Sequence record: OW991345
DNA length: 64,000 nt
Strand: one strand, 5' to 3'
From: Escherichia phage vB_Eco_AL25
Numbering within the stretch: the stretch's first letter is position 1; each line of letters opens with the position of its first letter. Made by a program: the position numbers and the translations under genes. Below, one piece after another: positions 11,601 to 41,106 of this stretch. The notes beneath the pieces are model-generated. The model was not told the DNA's origin. It worked only from the letters and a program-made list of their open reading frames with translations, and ran no database searches.

Positions 11601-13169
11601 ACGAATAGTAACTTCTGCTTCTGGTGCTTGAGCCATAGCTTCTTGTGCTGCCTGTGCAACATAGTCATCAGCAACAGGAGATGCTTCTTCATTCTGCTTC
11701 ATAACCCGTTCACCACGAGCTACCAAAGTGTTCTTAATAGGAGAAACAACCTTACCTGCTACACTACCAGCAGCTTTAACACCAGCTATTGTGGTACGCA
11801 ATACAGGAGCAGTTGCAGCACCTGCTAAACGAGCAGCACCAGCCGGAGCCTGTACAACACCAGCAGAACCAAAGCCATAAAGAGCACCTAAACCAGCTTG
11901 TGTACCGACACCTTTAAGCAGGTCTTGGTTCTTATCAATGTTTTGTTGCTGTGCAATATTCTGAGCCAGTTGGCCTGTAGCACCCTGAACACCTTCTTCC
12001 ACTGTTTCACGGGCAAGGTTCATACCTACAGCACCTAAAGAACCAGCACGGAAAGGAGCCATCTCAAAACGAGATACTAGAGGACCAGTTGCAGCAGCAA
12101 TAGGTAATTGAATAGCAGCAGCAGTAAGACCAGTTTCAGATGCAGTTTGACGACGAGCCTGTTCAGGGGACATACCATCTTTAATATGTTGCTGATAAAC
12201 AGGAGACTTCTCTAAGTCTTTAAGACTCATCTTCATAATTTCGTCAGCAGTTTGTTGGTATGCACCACCAGCTTCCATTGCACCAACACCAATCATACCT
12301 GGTGCAGCTCTGCCTACAGTAGAGGCAATACGAGCCAGTGACTGAGTACCAGTACCTGCATCAATAGCACCAGCCAATGCAGCACTACGAAGAGTATTTA
12401 CTGGAACAACTGCTTTACCCAGTAAAGATGCACCCCTTAATACAGGACCAGCACCTAATAGAGAACCTACCCCTTCCGCTAACCCATCAGAAATAATAGA
12501 GTCAGTTTGAGCAGCGTTCTCAATTGAACCTACAAAATCACGTCCAAATTTAGATAAGGAAGCTACTATGTCATTAGTGCCTTCTTTCTTATCTGTTTGA
12601 TACTGACGTTCACTCTCTACTTCACTCATTAAGTTACGAGCAGCAAAGAGCTTACGTTTATCTTGTAATGCTTGGCTTTGGGTAGCATGGACAGCATCAT
12701 TAAACTTACTCAATTGTTGAGCAATGACAGCACCTGCATCATCGTTGAGTAAGCCTGCCCCAAGAGCACCAATGCCCCCAAGGGTATTAACAAAACCAAG
12801 ACCAACACCAGTAGCAATATCCCCCAGTTCTTCCCCAGGAGTTCTTGTAGTAACTGAATCATTAAATACCTGGTTCCCTGCATCAGCACGAGCGTTGATA
12901 AGTTGTAAGCCTTGCTCAACCCCATACTTATTCATGATTTGCATTGGAGTCAGATTCATGAAATCTGATTGCACTGTCCCTGGTTCAAATGCATTAGCCC
13001 CAACATTACCAGTACGGGCAGCTTGCATTTGATAAGCAGCATCAGGAGAAACAAGAGGAGTAGTGACACCTTGTTCAGCTTTCTTCTGGGCGGTTGCAGT
13101 AGAGACGTCAACTTGCTTTGCATTGGTTACGCTGTCTGCGAACCCAGCCAGTCTATCAAATACTGACAT
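2667..13169 (-). CDS. virion-encapsidated RNA polymerase (vRNAP, N4 gp50-like), 3500 aa from the second ATG
   Basis: Giant ORF; second ATG has RBS AGGAAA 6 nt upstream and gives exactly 3500 aa; T7-like motif-A-like block EADGVTNGPINAMM; position as last late gene. Confidence 0.85.
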   Translation of the reverse strand: MSVFDRLAGFADSVTNAKQVDVSTATAQKKAEQGVTTPLVSPDAAYQMQAARTGNVGANAFEPGTVQSDFMNLTPMQIMNKYGVEQGLQLINARADAGNQVFNDSVTTRTPGEELGDIATGVGLGFVNTLGGIGALGAGLLNDDAGAVIAQQLSKFNDAVHATQSQALQDKRKLFAARNLMSEVESERQYQTDKKEGTNDIVASLSKFGRDFVGSIENAAQTDSIISDGLAEGVGSLLGAGPVLRGASLLGKAVVPVNTLRSAALAGAIDAGTGTQSLARIASTVGRAAPGMIGVGAMEAGGAYQQTADEIMKMSLKDLEKSPVYQQHIKDGMSPEQARRQTASETGLTAAAIQLPIAAATGPLVSRFEMAPFRAGSLGAVGMNLARETVEEGVQGATGQLAQNIAQQQNIDKNQDLLKGVGTQAGLGALYGFGSAGVVQAPAGAARLAGAATAPVLRTTIAGVKAAGSVAGKVVSPIKNTLVARGERVMKQNEEASPVADDYVAQAAQEAMAQAPEAEVTIRDAVEATDATPEQKVAAHQYVSDLMNATRFNPENYQEAPEHIRNAVAGSTDQVQVIQKLADLVNTLDESNPQALMEAASYMYDAVSEFEQFINRDPAALDSIPKDSPAIELLNRYTNLTANIQNTPKVIGALNVINRMINESAQNGSLDVTEESSPQEMQNVALAAEVAPEKLNPESVNVVLKHAADGRIKLNNHQIAALQNAAAILKGAREYDAEAARLGLRPQDIVSKQIKTDESRTQEGQYSALQHANRIRSAYNSGNFELASAYLNDFMQFAQHMQNKVGALNEHLVTGNADKNKSVHYQALTADREWVRSRTGLGVNPYDTKSVKFAQQVALEAKTVADIANALASAYPELKVSHIKVTPLDSRLNAPAAEVVKAFRQGNRDVASSQQKADSVNQVKETPVTKQEPVTSTVQTKTPVSEPVKTEPTTKESRPQAIKEPVSQSEKRDVNLTNEDTIKQPTESVKETETSAKESTVTEELREGIDAVYPSLVGTADSKAEGIKNYFKLSFTLPEEQKSRTVGSEAPLKEVAQALSSRARYELFTEKEVANPAFNGEVIKRYKELMEHGEGIAGILRSRLAKFLNTKDVGKRFAQGTEANRWVGGKLLNIVEQDGDTFKYNEQLLQTAVLAGLQWRLTATSNTAIKDAKDVAAITGIDQALLPEGLVEQFDTGMTLTEAVSSLAQKIESYWGLSRNPNAPLGYTKGIPTAMAAEILAAFVESTDVVENIVDMSEIDPDNKKTIGLYTITELDSFDPINSFPTAIEEAVLVNPTEKMFFGDDIPPVANTQLRNPAVRNTPEQKAALKAEQATEFYVHTPMVQFYETLGKDRILELMGAGTLNKELLNDNHAKSLEGKNRSVEDSYNQLFSVIEQVRAQSEDISTVPIHYAYNMTRVGRMQMLGKYNPQSAKLVREAILPTKATLDLSNQNNKDFSAFQLGLAQALDIKVHTMTRGVMSDELTKLLEGNLKPAIDMMVEFNTTGSLPENAVDVLNTALGDRKSFVALMALMEYSRYLVAEDKSAFVTPLYVEADGVTNGPINAMMLMTGGLFTPDWIRNIAKGGLFIGSPNKTMNEHRSTADNNDLYQASTNALMESLGKLRSNYASNMPIQSQIDSLLSLMDLFLPDINLGENGALELKRGIAKNPLTITIYGSGARGIAGKLVSSVTDAIYERMSDVLKARAKDPNISAAMAMFGKQAASEAHAEELLARFLKDMETLTSTVPVKRKGVLELQSTGAGAKGKINPKTYTIKGEQLKALQENMLHFFVEPLRNGITQTVGESLVYSTEQLQKATQIQSVVLEDMFKQRVQEKLAEKAKDPTWKKGDFLTQKELNDIQASLNNLAPMIETGSQTFYIAGSENAEVANQVLATNLDDRMRVPMSIYAPAQAGVAGIPFMTIGTGDGMMMQTLSTMRGAPKNTLKIFDGMNIGLNDITDASRKANEAVYTSWQGNPIKNVYESYAKFMKNVDFSKLSPEALEAIGKSALEYDQRENATVDDIANAASLIERNLRNIALGVDIRHKVLDKVNLSIDQMAAVGAPYQNNGKIDLSNMTPEQQADELNKLFREELEARKQKVAKAKAEVKEETVSEKEPVNPDFGIVGREHKASGVRILSATAIRNLAKISNLPSTQAATLAEIQKSLAAKDYKIIYGTPTQVAEYARQKNVTELTSQEMEEAQAGNIYGWTNFDDKTIYLVSPSMETLIHELVHASTFEEVYSFYQGNEVSPTSKQAIENLEGLMEQFRSLDISKDSPEMREAYADAIATIEGHLSNGFVDPAISKAAALNEFMAWGLANRALAAKQKRTSSLVQMVKDVYQAIKKLIWGRKQAPALGEDMFSNLLFNSAILMRSQPTTQAVAKDGTLFHSKAYGNNERLSQLNQTFDKLVTDYLRTDPVTEVERRGNVANALMSATRLVRDVQSRGFNMTAQEQSVFQMVTAALATEAAIDPHAMARAQELYTHVMKHLTVEHFMADPDSTNPADRYYAQQKYDTISGANLVEVDAKGRTSLLPTFLGLAMVNEELRSIIKEMPVPKADKKLGNDVDTLLTNAGTQVMESLNRRMAGDQKATNVQDSIDALSETIMAAALKRESFYDAVATPTGNFIDRANQYVTDSIERLSETVIEKADKVIANPSNVAAKGVAHLAKLTAAIASEKQGEIVAQGVMTAMNQGKVWQPFHDLVNDIVGRTKTNANVYDLIKLVKSQISQDRQQFREHLPTVIAGKFSRKLTDTEWSAMHTGLGKTDLAVLRETMSMAEIRDLLSSSKKVKDEISTLEKEIQNQAGRNWNLVQKKSKQLAQYMITGEVGNNLLRNAHAISRLLGERITNSPVADVAAIDKLTTLYSLELMNKSDRDLLSELAQSEVEGMEFSIAYMVGQRTEEMRKAKGDNRTLLNHFKGYIPVENQQGVNLIIADDKEFAKLNSQSFTRIGTYQGSTGFRTGSKGYYFSPVAARAPYSQGILQNVRNTAGGVDIGTGFTLGTMVAGRITDKPTVERITKALAKGERGREPLMPIYNNKGQVVAYEQSVDPNMLKHLNQDNHFAKMVGVWRGRQVEEAKAQRFNDILIEQLYAMYEKDIKDSSANKSQYVNLLGKIDDPVLADAINLMNIETRRKAEELFGKDELWVRRDMLNDALGYRAASIGDVWTGNSRWSPSTLDTVKKMFLGAFGNKAYHVVMNAENTIQNLVKDAKTVIVVKSVVVPAVNFLANIYQMIGRGVPVKDIAVNIPRKTSEINQYIKSRLRQIDAEAELRAAEGNPNLVRKLKTEIQSITDSHRRMSIWPLIEAGEFSSIADAGISRDDLLVAEGKIHEYMEKLANKLPEKVRNAGRYALIAKDTALFQGIQKTVEYSDFIAKAIIYDDLVKRKKKSSSEALGQVTEEFINYDRLPGRFRGYMESMGLMWFYNFKIRSIKVAMSMIRNNPVHSLIATVVPAPAMFGNVGLPIQDNMLTMLAEGRLDYSLGFGQGLRAPTLNPWFNLTH

Positions 13170-13230
13170 AGTAGGTTTCCTATACAAACTTATATCTATT
13201 AGAAATCACACTATACCTAGTGTAAGGACG

Positions 13231-36395: not shown

Positions 36396-37038
36396 TTACT
36401 TTAGTAGGTGTACCGGCTTCAATAGCTGCTTTCTGAGCCTCAGCCAACTGGGTTAGTGTGTTCTTGAGTTCAGTCAATCCAGAGTTTTCTCTCAAATCCA
36501 GATTGATATTAGTAACAGCATCCTTCGGTTTCTGGAGGTGAGTAAGGATAGAGTTGGCAGCATCACACTGTACCTTCTCACTGGTAGCATTCTTCATGAG
36601 CCATGCCTGATGGTTCAATGCTTCCTGAAACAAATCCTGATTAACAATCCATACTGGAATCAGTGATTGTTCCATAATGAGGTTTACTAACTTACCTCTA
36701 TGGTAAGCAGATACATAAGCAGAGATGTCCTTCTCACTGGTTCCCCTTGCTACTAATTCAGCTTGTCTGTTGGGGAATGTTTTGAAGTAAGCATCTTTGT
36801 TGCTATACCCCATGTGTTTGTAAGTAACATATTGAACAGCATTAAGGTAATCCTGGGTCTTAAACTTCCCATCCTTCATCACCCCAGCATAAGTCACAAA
36901 GTTATTTCTAATTTGCTCTGCTGCTGTCTGGTCTTGGGTCACATTGTTAATCATGTTTACCAGTTGGTCAGTAACACTGCTTTTAAACTGGGGAGGCAAT
37001 GCAGAAACAATGTCTTTCTTCGTCAGTAGTGTGCTCAT
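36346..37038 (-). CDS. putative terminase small subunit / first late gene, 230 aa
   Basis: Directly upstream of and overlapping terminase large subunit by 50 nt; RBS AGGAAG. Confidence 0.4.
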   Translation of the reverse strand: MSTLLTKKDIVSALPPQFKSSVTDQLVNMINNVTQDQTAAEQIRNNFVTYAGVMKDGKFKTQDYLNAVQYVTYKHMGYSNKDAYFKTFPNRQAELVARGTSEKDISAYVSAYHRGKLVNLIMEQSLIPVWIVNQDLFQEALNHQAWLMKNATSEKVQCDAANSILTHLQKPKDAVTNINLDLRENSGLTELKNTLTQLAEAQKAAIEAGTPTKVIAGSTLVREDEDIIDV

Positions 37039-37165
37039 AGTCTTCCTACAAATTATCTAGAGTGAAGAGGATTCTTTTCTTGGGGTTAGCACCCCTTGCA
37101 GAAACCTATACATAGATTTAGACTTTAGACTTTCTTTAGTCTCCTTACAATAGTAAGACAGAGAC

Positions 37166-37507
37166 ATGGGGAGCCTATTGCCCAAAGGAACCAGTAACAT
37201 GAGACTATTCTATAGTTTTGACGGTAATGACCAATGGAATGAGATAGACTTCAGTAAAATAGGTGGAGCTATCCCAGTTGGAGGGGCTATGCCAGGTGAC
37301 CATATCTTATGTCACGATGAGGAGTCTTTCCATTACATCTCAGGTATGATGTTAATCAATAACGTCACTGGGTTTACTGTCCATAAACCTGCACCAGTAC
37401 GTGTCATTACCAAGCCTATCGAGGGTCTTGCATTCTTTACAAGAATACCTCAAAGTATCTCTATCAAACGACAGCGTGACGCCATCGAGATGACCGTGGT
37501 TGCTTGA
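37166..37507 (+). CDS. hypothetical protein in the divergent junction, 113 aa
   Basis: ORF with plausible codon usage; weak RBS; overlapping minus-strand ORFs look spurious. Confidence 0.3.
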   Translation: MGSLLPKGTSNMRLFYSFDGNDQWNEIDFSKIGGAIPVGGAMPGDHILCHDEESFHYISGMMLINNVTGFTVHKPAPVRVITKPIEGLAFFTRIPQSISIKRQRDAIEMTVVA

Positions 37508-37670
37508 TAAGCCATTGCCCGCCCAGGAGTTGGTGGCGGGAAACAGGGAACTGTTTGAATAACCACTCCAGCTACATTCACCCATCTCCAAGACACCTTT
37601 GTTATCTGCCATTGGGTGATGAGTAGTATCAGAGAGAACTGATTTAACAAACACACTCGGTATAGGAATT

Positions 37671-37699
37671 GGGAGCCAAATGGCTCCCTTTTTCTTTTA
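37671..37699 (+). terminator. rho-independent terminator just upstream of the first early gene
   Basis: GGGAGCC-AAAT-GGCTCCC followed by TTTTTCTTTT. Confidence 0.6.
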
Positions 37700-37717
37700 T
37701 GAACCAAGGAGTTCTAT

Positions 37718-38083
37718 ATGAACATTCGTCCTAATGAAGTCTATGGTATCAACCTAGAATACACTACAAACAAACCTGCTCTATTTCACTGTGGTTCCAC
37801 CAACCTATTCCATGCTATGTGTGGTAATACCAAACCTCTTTACTTACCCGAATCAGATGATACCCATGCCCTGCTAGGTAACTGGTTTTTAGAAGGTAAA
37901 GACATTAGTACCATTCTCCTTGAACCAAGGAAGAAAGTAGCAATACCTACTAATGCATGGAATAACGAAGTCATTTACTTCCTCGCACCTGAAGGCTTTG
38001 AACCAGTGATAGAACAGAATCACTTTAATCATGCAGTTACTTTCTACTTCAGAGAGACTTCAAAGTTATCTGCTTATAAATAA
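37718..38083 (+). CDS. early hypothetical protein, 121 aa
   Basis: RBS AAGGAG 7 nt upstream. Confidence 0.6.
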   Translation: MNIRPNEVYGINLEYTTNKPALFHCGSTNLFHAMCGNTKPLYLPESDDTHALLGNWFLEGKDISTILLEPRKKVAIPTNAWNNEVIYFLAPEGFEPVIEQNHFNHAVTFYFRETSKLSAYK

Positions 38084-38091
38084 GGAAAGCT

Positions 38092-38220
38092 ATGTGGTAT
38101 ATAACAGTTAAAGGTTTACCCGAACCAGTGATGATAGATAGCCTAGCCTTCGTAGAAGTAGGTCATCCTATTCTTATAGAAGGTAAGTTGTATGAAGTTG
38201 TTAGTATTTATAAGAGATAA
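38092..38220 (+). CDS. small early protein, 42 aa
   Basis: RBS AGGAAA directly upstream; below ORF-track cutoff. Confidence 0.3.
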   Translation: MWYITVKGLPEPVMIDSLAFVEVGHPILIEGKLYEVVSIYKR

Positions 38221-38379
38221 ATAGGAAGTCTATTAGATAGATACCCTATAATTTTTTCTTAGTGAAAATAGTCATAGTTACTTATGAGTTCAGTATTTGG
38301 TGGGGCTACACCCCTTACACCATAAGCACCCCCCCCCCTGTCTTTACTAGTGTAGCCTTAGCCTACCCCACCTTGTACA

Positions 38380-38412
38380 CGTTACACGTTGCTTCGCAAC
38401 TTATGGACATGT
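38380..38412 (+). promoter_or_regulatory. N4 vRNAP-type hairpin promoter (5-bp stem, 3-nt loop; template loop GAA)
   Basis: GTTGC-TTC-GCAAC followed by TTATGGAC; same architecture as the other two hairpins. Confidence 0.6.
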
Positions 38413-38451
38413 TGTCCGTATCTTATCAATCAACTATTGGAGACTAATACT

Positions 38452-38778
38452 ATGACTACTCAGGCTAACGTTCGTATGACTGTAGGAACTCTGTTGGGTA
38501 CTGTTAACGAAGCAGCAACTACTGTAGCTGATACATTCGGTACTGCTACTAAAGCAGTAGGTATGCTTAATCGTTATGTAACTAAACAAGCAGATAAACA
38601 AATCATTCGTGACAAATTAGAAATGCATGAGTTTACCAATAAACTTATTGAAGAAACTGCAATGCAAGAAGCTATTCGTCAGAAACAAATCTTAGACTTC
38701 TGCAAAGATGAACAAAACAAAGAATTGTTCTCTAATGCCTATGACCGTCTTAGCAAAATCTTAGCAGACTCTAAATAA
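38452..38778 (+). CDS. early hypothetical protein, 108 aa
   Basis: RBS GGAGA; internal ATG chosen because the longer ORF begins inside the promoter hairpin. Confidence 0.55.
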   Translation: MTTQANVRMTVGTLLGTVNEAATTVADTFGTATKAVGMLNRYVTKQADKQIIRDKLEMHEFTNKLIEETAMQEAIRQKQILDFCKDEQNKELFSNAYDRLSKILADSK

Positions 38779-38849
38779 CAACAAACAAATGGAGGCTCCT
38801 CGGAGTCTCCTTTTACATAGAACCGATAGTTCAATAACTATCTACTTTA

Positions 38850-38880
38850 AAGATAAGAAGCTCCGCTTCTTTTGGATGAA
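38850..38880 (+). promoter_or_regulatory. N4 vRNAP-type hairpin promoter, P2-like (7-bp stem, 3-nt loop; template reads AAGAAGCGGAGCTTCTT)
   Basis: AAGAAGC-TCC-GCTTCTT followed by TTGGATG; the reverse complement matches the N4 P2 core as I recall it. Confidence 0.7.
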
Positions 38881-38991
38881 GTAATGCATCCAATCCTGTA
38901 TGAAATCTTAACCTTTTGTCTGGGATTACTTACCGACAAAGTAGTCTCAACTAATCAAAATCAACTATCTGGAGAGTACAAAATGGCTATC

Positions 38992-39369
38992 ACTACTTTT
39001 GCTAAAACCTTTGGTCAGGCTTCTACTAAAACCGAATCCAACAATGGTTCTCGTCCGAAAGCTCAGTTCTGGATTAACGTTGGCTATGTAGCTAATGAAG
39101 GCACTGAAGATGAACGTTTCATCTCTCTGCCTACTGGTATTCCACTGGATACTCAGGAGCATCTGCCAACCAATTCCTCTAACGAAGACTTCCGTGCAAT
39201 GCGTTGTGCACAGAACGATTTGTTAGACCAACTGATGGAATTTGCTAAGACTCTGGAACCAGGTCAGGAAGGAGTTATCTCACTGCAAGTTCAACTTCGT
39301 CGAGTTAAAGAAGAAGCTCCTGCTATCTCAGCAAGTGAGAATAAATATGCTCGTAAACTGACTTTTTAA
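38992..39369 (+). CDS. early hypothetical protein, 125 aa
   Basis: RBS GGAGAG 6 nt upstream of ATG; the TTG start at 38872 in the ORF track lies inside the promoter. Confidence 0.55.
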
Positions 39370-39377
39370 TCTCTATA

Positions 39378-39405
39378 GGACTACCTTCGGGTAGTCCTTT
39401 TTAAT
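39378..39405 (+). terminator. rho-independent terminator
   Basis: GGACTACC-TTCG-GGTAGTCC followed by TTTTT. Confidence 0.65.
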
Positions 39406-39511
39406 TTTAACTATCTAAATACTAAAGTAGAGATTTTGACCCTTTTCGACGAAGGGATACTAAAAAGTAATGGATAGTTTGAGCAGATGTTTTAGAAGAA
39501 GGAGTATACAG

Positions 39512-39826
39512 ATGCATCCTCTTATAAAACGATTCCTGATGGACTATCAGGAGTGGTTAGATAATGGAGCCAGTGAACCTCATTACCTGTTTGATAGGGG
39601 TAGTGGACTGTGTGTTCAACTAGGCAAATATCTTAGAAGACAGCCAATCAGTGAAGAAACAGTAGATACTCTGTGTAAGAGCTTTACTCATTTACTTCCT
39701 GATAATGATACCAATCTACCATTCAATGTAGATGTTCTCGACTACATGATGGAATGTTCTGATGGAAGATGTCATCTGAACCAAAGTCGAATTAATTGGA
39801 TAAAGAGTCAGTTGGAGAGTAAGTAA
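39512..39826 (+). CDS. early hypothetical protein, 104 aa
   Basis: RBS GAAGGAG before internal ATG. Confidence 0.5.
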   Translation: MHPLIKRFLMDYQEWLDNGASEPHYLFDRGSGLCVQLGKYLRRQPISEETVDTLCKSFTHLLPDNDTNLPFNVDVLDYMMECSDGRCHLNQSRINWIKSQLESK

Positions 39827-39829
39827 ATT

Positions 39830-40267
39830 ATGTCATATGAAATTGTAAAACATTGGACTTCTAAGGCTGGGCTGAAGGCTTGGGTATTGCTGGTAAATGG
39901 TGGTAGTCATCATTGCGGTTACGTAGAAATACCTGAAGCATTACTGGATAAAAACTTCTATGACTATATCTGTGATGATGAAGAAACACTTCATATTGCA
40001 GTACATGGTGGAGTTACCTATCAAGGTGTTCCTCAGTGGGCTGATGGGATTAAAGTCATAGGTTATGACTGTGCTCATGCAGGGGATAAACTGAAATGTC
40101 CTAAACAATTCATTGGCTCTCTTAGGGAGAGACTCTATGAGGATTCTTATGGAGTATGGCGAGATGAAGAATACTGCATCAATGAATGTGAAAGCATGGC
40201 AGACCAGTTAATTAACCTGATACCAAAATTAGGGTTTAACGATGAAATTCAGAACAGTAATGGTTAA
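39830..40267 (+). CDS. early hypothetical protein with His/Cys-rich blocks, 145 aa
   Basis: GGSHHCGYVEIP, HGGVTY, GYDCAHAGD blocks; product unknown. Confidence 0.55.
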   Translation: MSYEIVKHWTSKAGLKAWVLLVNGGSHHCGYVEIPEALLDKNFYDYICDDEETLHIAVHGGVTYQGVPQWADGIKVIGYDCAHAGDKLKCPKQFIGSLRERLYEDSYGVWRDEEYCINECESMADQLINLIPKLGFNDEIQNSNG

Positions 40268-40439
40268 TGCTCTTGATACCAGGGGTAATGAAATCATTAG
40301 CTATAAAGTGCAAGGCTTTAAATGGTTCAAATGGAAAACATTAACTAGCTTTAAAGAATTTGAGAAAGATAAAGCTATTAAGTTAACCAAGAAATTGAAC
40401 CAACGTAAGAAGATTAAATTAGTTACTGTAATTAAATAA
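40242..40439 (+). CDS. early hypothetical basic protein, 65 aa
   Basis: ORF overlapping previous gene end. Confidence 0.4.
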   Translation: MKFRTVMVNALDTRGNEIISYKVQGFKWFKWKTLTSFKEFEKDKAIKLTKKLNQRKKIKLVTVIK

Positions 40440-40449
40440 GGATAAGGCA

Positions 40450-40608
40450 ATGCGTAAATCACTAATCATGGGAACCAAAGAAGACGTTGCTAAGATGAAA
40501 GCTAAACGTCAGATGAATAAAGCAGTAACGTTTGCAGAACGTTATAGTACGTCTGAACCAGTACGTCGTATTGTTACTTTCAACCATCCAGCTATTAAGG
40601 GTATGTAA
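40450..40608 (+). CDS. small early protein, 52 aa
   Basis: RBS AAGGATAAGG; stop overlaps next start (TAATG). Confidence 0.4.
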   Translation: MRKSLIMGTKEDVAKMKAKRQMNKAVTFAERYSTSEPVRRIVTFNHPAIKGM

Positions 40609-40817
40609 TGCAAACTAAAGATAAGAAAGACTTAGAACGTCTTCTCCGTGTATATGGTGATTATGCATTGTTAGCAGAGATAACTAATATTATCGAAGAA
40701 GACTGTCGTAACGGTTATGCCAATAACCCACAAGCAATAATTCATCGTGATGCAGTAGTGCTTAGAGAAGCAGTCAGTAAGATGCAAGCATTACATCCAT
40801 TAAGACAGCGAGCATAA
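40608..40817 (+). CDS. early hypothetical protein, 69 aa
   Basis: Translationally coupled to upstream ORF. Confidence 0.5.
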   Translation: MQTKDKKDLERLLRVYGDYALLAEITNIIEEDCRNGYANNPQAIIHRDAVVLREAVSKMQALHPLRQRA

Positions 40818-40890
40818 ATAGGAGGGGGCTACTAAGCCCTCTTCTTATTTTTATCGTGGTTATTAAGCAACTATCTTAGAGGAAGGAATA

Positions 40891-41106
40891 ATGGAACAGT
40901 TAAACTACGGTTATAAGATTAAACGCAATCAAGTAAGAGGTTCTTGGTTATTTCTCGTTTATGGTAAACCAATCTATGAATTACATCGTGGAGAGAAATC
41001 CAAGACCTATTACGTAACTCATATTGCTACAGGAAAAACTCCTGCATGTGCAGGATTGCTTCGTGATGCAATTATGAAAGCATGTATGTTAGAAGGACTT
41101 CTATGA
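40891..41106 (+). CDS. early hypothetical protein, 71 aa
   Basis: RBS GGAAGGAATA upstream. Confidence 0.5.
   Translation: MEQLNYGYKIKRNQVRGSWLFLVYGKPIYELHRGEKSKTYYVTHIATGKTPACAGLLRDAIMKACMLEGLL

Follow-up and report, generated by a model that had tools for sequence, protein, structure and literature searches.

The window analysed here is the whole 64,000-nucleotide stretch of DNA from Escherichia phage vB_Eco_AL25 (record OW991345), and the locus of interest lies on its plus strand, between the homologue of gp72 (38092–38220) and the early gene gp1. Coliphage N4 and the phages closely related to it (Jura, PMBT57 and the BEU isolates) share 98–99.5% identity with positions 37000–41000 of the window. 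The first base of the N4 record aligns with 38298 of the window and the last base of that record corresponds to 38297; the window is, thus, circularly permuted, with the two physical ends of the genome joined, and the break point 38297/38298 marks where the N4 record has its physical left end. The gp72 homologue ends before this junction. The first 110 nt of the genome contain a single difference from N4, a run of ten cytosines at 38329–38338 where N4 has nine, which may reflect either genuine variation or a sequencing artefact affecting the length of the run. A 61-aa open reading frame with a GTG start (38262–38447, plus strand) spans the junction, the poly-C run and the first of the hairpins described below, and can almost certainly be dismissed as spurious, since such a frame would run across the physical end of the linear genome. 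Three short hairpins on the plus strand, referred to here as P1, P2 and P3, lie upstream of gp1, gp2 and gp15 (which encodes an RNAPII subunit), respectively. The product of gp1 is a cofactor of N4 RNAPII (PMC4496689), and gp1 is the first gene transcribed from P1. A 3506-aa open reading frame encodes the giant virion RNA polymerase (vRNAP), the central 1111 aa of which match the PDB chains of N4 vRNAP at about 2414 bits. The coordinates of these features are given in Table 1.

Table 1. Features of the early region and of the vRNAP gene, in window coordinates.
Feature	Position	Strand	Description
P1 promoter hairpin	38388–38400	+	Non-template GTTGC-TTC-GCAAC; template (minus) 5'-GTTGC-GAA-GCAAC-3'
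P1 single-stranded spacer	38401–38404	+	−4 to −1, TTAT; template ATAA
Predicted transcription start (+1)	38405	+	RNA base G, template C; 8 nt downstream of −8
Second 5-bp/3-nt hairpin	38405–38417	+	GGACA-TGT-TGTCC; begins exactly at predicted +1
gp1 Shine-Dalgarno sequence	38439–38442	+	GGAG; invariant in orthologues
gp1 CDS	38452–38778	+	Corresponds to N4 gp1 (154–480); early gene
Terminator-like hairpin	38791–38814	+	8 pairs, loop CTCG, then TTTT; just after gp1 stop, before P2
P2 promoter	38857–38869	+	Hairpin GAAGC-TCC-GCTTC; 7-bp extension 38855–38871; predicted +1 G 38874
P3 promoter	42846–42858	+	Hairpin GCTGC-TCC-GCAGC; 7-bp extension 42844–42860; predicted +1 G 42863
vRNAP gene	2667–13187	−	Longest ORF, 3506 aa, TTG start; recognises these hairpins

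An earlier note on this DNA had described a 5-bp stem with a 3-nt loop, GTTGC-TTC-GCAAC, and a template loop reading GAA. Two perfectly complementary 5-nt arms separated by a 3-nt loop are indeed present on the plus strand at 38388–38400, and the template strand does read GAA in the loop, within exactly GCGAAGC (GCTTCGC on the non-template strand). The hairpin spans −17 to −5, with the centre of its loop (−11) at 38394, and its active form is the hairpin of the minus (template) strand. GTTGC/GCAAC pairing is both the minimum free energy structure and the centroid structure of either strand. The stem of P1 is limited to 5 bp, with no possible extension, whereas those of P2 and P3 extend to 7 bp. 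The hairpin is followed by TTAT (38401–38404) and then by GGACATG (38405–38411), so that the T-rich stretch ending in GG, which the note had likened to that of a P2-like element, is found in both cases (TTAT-GG in P1 and TTTT-GG in P2). The hairpin was also said to lie 40 nt upstream of the ribosome-binding site of gp1; the distance from the end of the hairpin to this site is in fact 38 nt, close enough for the spatial relationship to stand with a corrected figure. The gp1 ATG lies 52 nt downstream of the hairpin, and the leader from the predicted +1, placed at 38405 on the basis of published numbering (PMC4496689), to this ATG is 47 nt long.

The promoters of N4 vRNAP are conserved from −17 to +1, with a GC-rich heptamer centred at −11 and inverted repeats on either side (PMC4496689). 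The polymerase recognises −11A/G, −10G, −8G and +1C on the template strand; −10G and −12A form a sheared pair, and −9C is also contacted. The double-strand/single-strand junction is fixed between −5 and −4, the spacer bases act as a ruler, and initiation occurs 8 nt downstream of −8 (PMC4496689). The loops of N4 promoters are GGA or GAA, the GGA loop being the high-affinity form (KD 2 nM), and GCGAAGC is an extraordinarily stable DNA mini-hairpin, with a Tm of 76.5 °C (PMC13037366). P1 possesses every published sequence determinant of N4 vRNAP promoters. Its stem falls within the 5–7 bp range, with a 3-nt loop centred at −11; its heptamer has the GC-loop-GC form, with −10G, −11A and −12A on the template strand (PMC4496689, PMC13037366); and the bases contacted by the specificity loop are −9C and −8G on the template strand (non-template G 38396 and C 38397). 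The template base at +1 is C, with G at both 38405 and 38406, which constitutes a fit at the sequence level. In orthologues, the outer pairs of the stem change on both sides and pairing is kept. The element is located about 90–102 nt into the N4 record, counted from its left end, on the plus strand and directed towards the early genes, and the window also contains the gene for the cognate giant vRNAP. The P1 template has two G-C pairs and a sheared G:A pair in common with the d(GCGAAGC) mini-hairpin of Hirao (PMC13037366), but, unlike this free oligonucleotide, the motif in P1 is part of a longer, 5-bp stem and functions in recognition by a protein. The early hairpin promoters of LUZ7, an N4-like Pseudomonas phage belonging to a different subfamily from N4-type coliphage, were compared by description: transcription starts 13–14 nt from the hairpin centre in LUZ7, versus 11 nt in P1.

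The identification of the element is based on the oligonucleotide sequences printed in two studies (PMC13434306, PMC13492108). An 81-nt template published as the P1 promoter with its native flanks gives run-off transcription (PMC13434306). The sequence of this template, provided in the methods of the same paper, is that of 38356–38436 on the minus strand, with 81 of 81 nucleotides identical and 0 mismatches. These positions correspond to 58–138 of the N4 record, with 100% identity, and 12 of the 14 matching records, among them N4 and 10 further N4-type isolates, carry the 81 nt without a single difference. The hairpin of the P1 oligonucleotide used for cryo-EM, GTTGCGAAGCAAC (PMC13434306), is also identical to the template-strand hairpin of the window. 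The element thus shares its sequence with N4 P1 over at least 81 nt, lies at the equivalent position, precedes gp1 as in N4 and has the N4 template loop, GAA with −11A; there is no difference within the element itself. It can be identified with near certainty as P1, an early promoter of N4-type coliphages, in a member of the genus Enquatrovirus. The comparison with N4 P1 suggested in the earlier note therefore bears out the proposal of a vRNAP-type hairpin promoter, the element being identical to the P1 used in experiments and in agreement with all the sequence rules, but the designation "second" promoter has to be abandoned, because P1 is the first promoter on the injected genome end. P1 has been described before and does not constitute a new element; it is among the best-characterised of phage promoters, having already been mapped, mutated, crystallised and imaged by cryo-EM in N4, and the present work adds no new biology in this respect. 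It does make it possible to annotate 38405 as the predicted first base of the early transcription unit and ATG 38452 as the start of gp1.

Three early promoters have been reported within the leftmost 10% or so of the N4 genome (PMC4496689, PMC13492108). Positions 38857–38875 of the window are the reverse complement of CCAAAAGAAGCGGAGCTTC, the core of the published P2 oligonucleotide (PMC13492108), and what had been called a P2-like element is, thus, P2 itself. The third element, at 42846–42858, fits the early promoter P3, and we infer its label from this fit. P1 resembles the N4 promoters P2 and P3 (P2 hairpin: PDB 3C2P family) in having the heptamer at −11, −10G, −9C and −8G, a 4-nt spacer and GG at +1/+2, but it differs from them in its loop, GAA (−11A) as opposed to GGA (−11G), and in its spacer, TTAT as opposed to TTTT.

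A bare hairpin of this size is common, with 124 perfect 5-bp/3-nt hairpins in the window, and it could be argued that the inverted repeat at 38388–38400 arose by chance and has no function. Folding predictions provide some support for such a view: nearest-neighbour folding of the 33-nt region yielded energies no better than those of shuffled sequences for either strand (z about −1), with a value of −3.7 kcal/mol (z −1.0) for the P1 template strand. This low score is to be expected, given that the standard parameters do not take into account the stability conferred on the GCGAAGC mini-hairpin by its sheared G:A pair (PMC13037366). A search of 37000–44000 against Rfam at the gathering threshold gave no match. 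The loose pattern GCNNNGCNNNTNNTGG, considered alone, has 3 matches against 1.06 expected, which is not significant, and stem complementarity was therefore added to the enrichment test. There are four copies of the heptamer GC-TYC-GC in the window, three of which have full 3-bp flanks, a T-rich 4-nt spacer and GG. For the full motif (three complementary bases, GC-TYC-GC, three complementary bases, any four nucleotides and GG), these three copies compare with an average of 0.003 per sequence in a set of 300 first-order Markov simulations, a single one of which contained any match, corresponding to an enrichment of about 1000-fold. All three copies are on the plus strand and they lie directly upstream of gp1, gp2 and gp15, the motif being found only upstream of early genes. 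The stem has also been kept by two-sided changes in other genera. The identity of the element, over 81 nt, to a promoter with published run-off activity (PMC13434306) and the enrichment of the full motif effectively refute an origin by chance, the probability of which is very small.

Conservation can be followed in related phages. Over the first 400 nt or so of the genome, identity is about 75% for three other genera of the subfamily Enquatrovirinae, Kaypoctavirus (KP8), Gamaleyavirus (G7C, pSb-1 and phi G17) and Moovirus (Moo19), and the KP8 record has an annotated "early promoter" at 89–110, in the same place as P1. The P1-type promoters of KP8, G7C, pSb-1 and Moo19 lie where P1 does with respect to the genome end and gp1, and the orthologues share with P1 the GC-loop-GC core, the AT at the end of the spacer, GGACATG and the initially transcribed sequence GGACATGT. 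The stem is GTTGC/GCAAC in N4, KP8 and G7C, versus CATGC/GCATG in pSb-1, phi G17 and Moo19. The pairs −17/−5 (G:C to C:G) and −16/−6 (T:A to A:T) are swapped on both sides in four of the nine distinct orthologue types, around an invariant core; this covariation is confined to two clades and may, therefore, reflect only one or two evolutionary events, but it is consistent with the published finding that the non-conserved bases of the stem matter only for pairing. A scan of IMG/VR with GCTYCGC-N5-ATGGACATG retrieved 38 loci, 14 of which have a stem of at least 5 bp, the other 24 having stems of 2–4 bp. An N4-like gp1 leader and start are present downstream only in the 14 loci with the longer stem.

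The loop varies between these phages. Comparison of window positions 38393–38395 with the sequences L003–L010 and L012–L044 showed the loop TTC (template GAA, −11A) to be confined to N4-type isolates, whereas every orthologue examined from Kaypoctavirus, Gamaleyavirus and Moovirus has TCC (template GGA, −11G), the reported high-affinity form. In Escherichia phage PD205 (L007), a 26-nt insertion, TGCTTGACTCACTTCGTTCGTCAGCG, at about 360–400 interrupts the P1 orthologue in its upstream flank and left arm, and only a 4-bp stem (ATGC/GCAT) is left. G7C (L004) has a second hairpin, AAC-GC-TCC-GC-GTT, at 501–530, upstream of gp1.1, with C rather than G at the predicted +1, and this hairpin may be a diverged P2-type promoter.

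Downstream of gp1, the terminator-like hairpin at 38791–38814 is likely to mark where the P1 transcription unit ends, which would make its RNA about 410 nt long. It is one of three terminator-like hairpins with T-runs that follow, on the plus strand, the gp1, gp2 and gp7 homologues (38791–38814, 39377–39403 and 40820–40855, respectively). In the region 38200–43000 as a whole, there are 8 terminator-like sites, against 2.8 expected, and matches to sigma-70-like promoters are depleted (7, against 15.9 expected).

The mechanism published for the identical N4 sequence can be transferred to P1 of the window. The analysis of the window provides the sequence identity, the anatomy, the position in the genome, the conservation with covariation of the stem and the presence of a gene for the cognate polymerase, whereas hairpin extrusion, dependence on SSB and gyrase and the exact start site are taken from the literature; initiation by vRNAP is rifampicin-resistant, and the gyrase and SSB dependence of N4 early promoters in vivo has been reviewed (PMC4496689). 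The left end of the genome would enter the cell first, and the DNA would be supercoiled by the host DNA gyrase. Negative supercoiling would cause the inverted repeat at 38388–38400 to extrude as a cruciform, and E. coli SSB would melt the non-template hairpin but spare the unusually stable template mini-hairpin (5'-GTTGC-GAA-GCAAC-3'). Co-injected vRNAP would then bind the template hairpin via −11 (A), −10G, −9C and −8G, set the double-strand/single-strand junction between −5 and −4, and initiate transcription at 38405, with GTP opposite the +1C of the template. The resulting transcript would consist of the 47-nt leader and gp1, probably ending at the hairpin and T-run of 38791–38814, and the products of gp1, gp2 and gp15/gp16 would set up middle transcription (PMC4496689, PMC13434306).

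Other functions can be envisaged for the sequence occupied by the hairpin. If gp1 started at TTG 38389, the palindrome would be incidental to a coding sequence, and there is indeed an open frame from this TTG to 38778 (129 aa). The start of this longer frame, TTG 38389–38391, falls in the left arm of the hairpin, and the earlier note had considered its use unlikely, a view that holds: there is no Shine-Dalgarno sequence before the TTG, which lies upstream of the predicted start of the early transcript at 38405, whereas an invariant GGAG is located 9 nt before ATG 38452, and N4 gp1 is annotated from the ATG matching 38452. Orthologues also have insertions and deletions between the hairpin and the ATG (a gap of 6–7 nt relative to N4, and leaders of variable length among genera), implying that no single upstream reading frame has been preserved. 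The probability of a coding role is, therefore, negligible, and neither the 129-aa TTG frame nor the 61-aa frame at 38262–38447 is a gene. It is hardly more credible that the hairpin is an intrinsic terminator for rightward transcription from gp70–gp72 on concatemeric or circularised DNA. It is closed by GC pairs and lies downstream of the gp72 homologue, but its 5-bp stem is followed by TTATGG rather than a T-run, and a terminator scan that called 38791, 39377 and 40820 did not call it. A Rho-independent terminator, defined by a GC-rich stem directly followed by a T-run, was rejected for P1 on these grounds.

A role of the hairpin and its conserved flanks mainly in the terminal repeat, for example in genome-end recognition, packaging or the priming of replication, with promoter activity being secondary or overlapping, is improbable, but less so than a coding or terminator function. 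The element is located close to the left end of the N4 record (91–103 nt), the 38362–38387 sequence is invariant across genera whereas the sequence further upstream varies, and the contigs of KP8 and G7C each carry two copies of the P1 orthologue, one per terminal repeat (about 404 bp in KP8 and 1160 bp in G7C). From our analysis, the terminal repeat of KP8 appears to be roughly 400 bp long, and we take that of N4 to be of roughly 400 bp. No result obtained here ties the hairpin itself to packaging, and the conserved positions of the hairpin are exactly those contacted by vRNAP; P2 and P3 share these contact positions and yet lie outside the terminal repeat of about 400 bp. A role in the terminal repeat would, in any case, be compatible with promoter function, and the hairpin is best considered as the P1 promoter.

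The sequences flanking P1 have features of their own. The second hairpin, at 38405–38417, would give the gp1 mRNA a stem-loop at its 5' terminus or, at the DNA level, fold as a hairpin of the template. Its outer 4 bp are invariant in the nine orthologue types (four genera), whereas most of these types have A/C in place of the inner A:T pair. The P2 transcript starts with a 5' stem-loop at 38874–38891 (−6.4 kcal/mol). When the three early transcripts were folded, a stem-loop at the 5' end was weakly indicated for P1 and P2 (z −1.4 and −1.9, respectively) and absent from P3, and the idea of a 5' stem-loop as a common rule of early transcripts was consequently rejected. It is possible, but rather doubtful, that the +1 hairpin, the 26-nt block at 38362–38387 and the −11A specific to the N4 species are undescribed control elements around P1, which together could tune initiation or promoter escape, stabilise the 5' end of the gp1 mRNA, or couple P1 to the functions of the terminal repeat. 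The 26-nt block, CCTACCCCACCTT(GT)ACACGTTACAC, lies immediately upstream of the P1 hairpin and is invariant across the four genera, except for the GT inserted in N4-type phages, whereas the adjoining sequence, 38340–38361, varies. The block also contains the first part of a tandem repeat of ACACGTT (two copies, 38377–38390), which overlaps the left arm of the hairpin.
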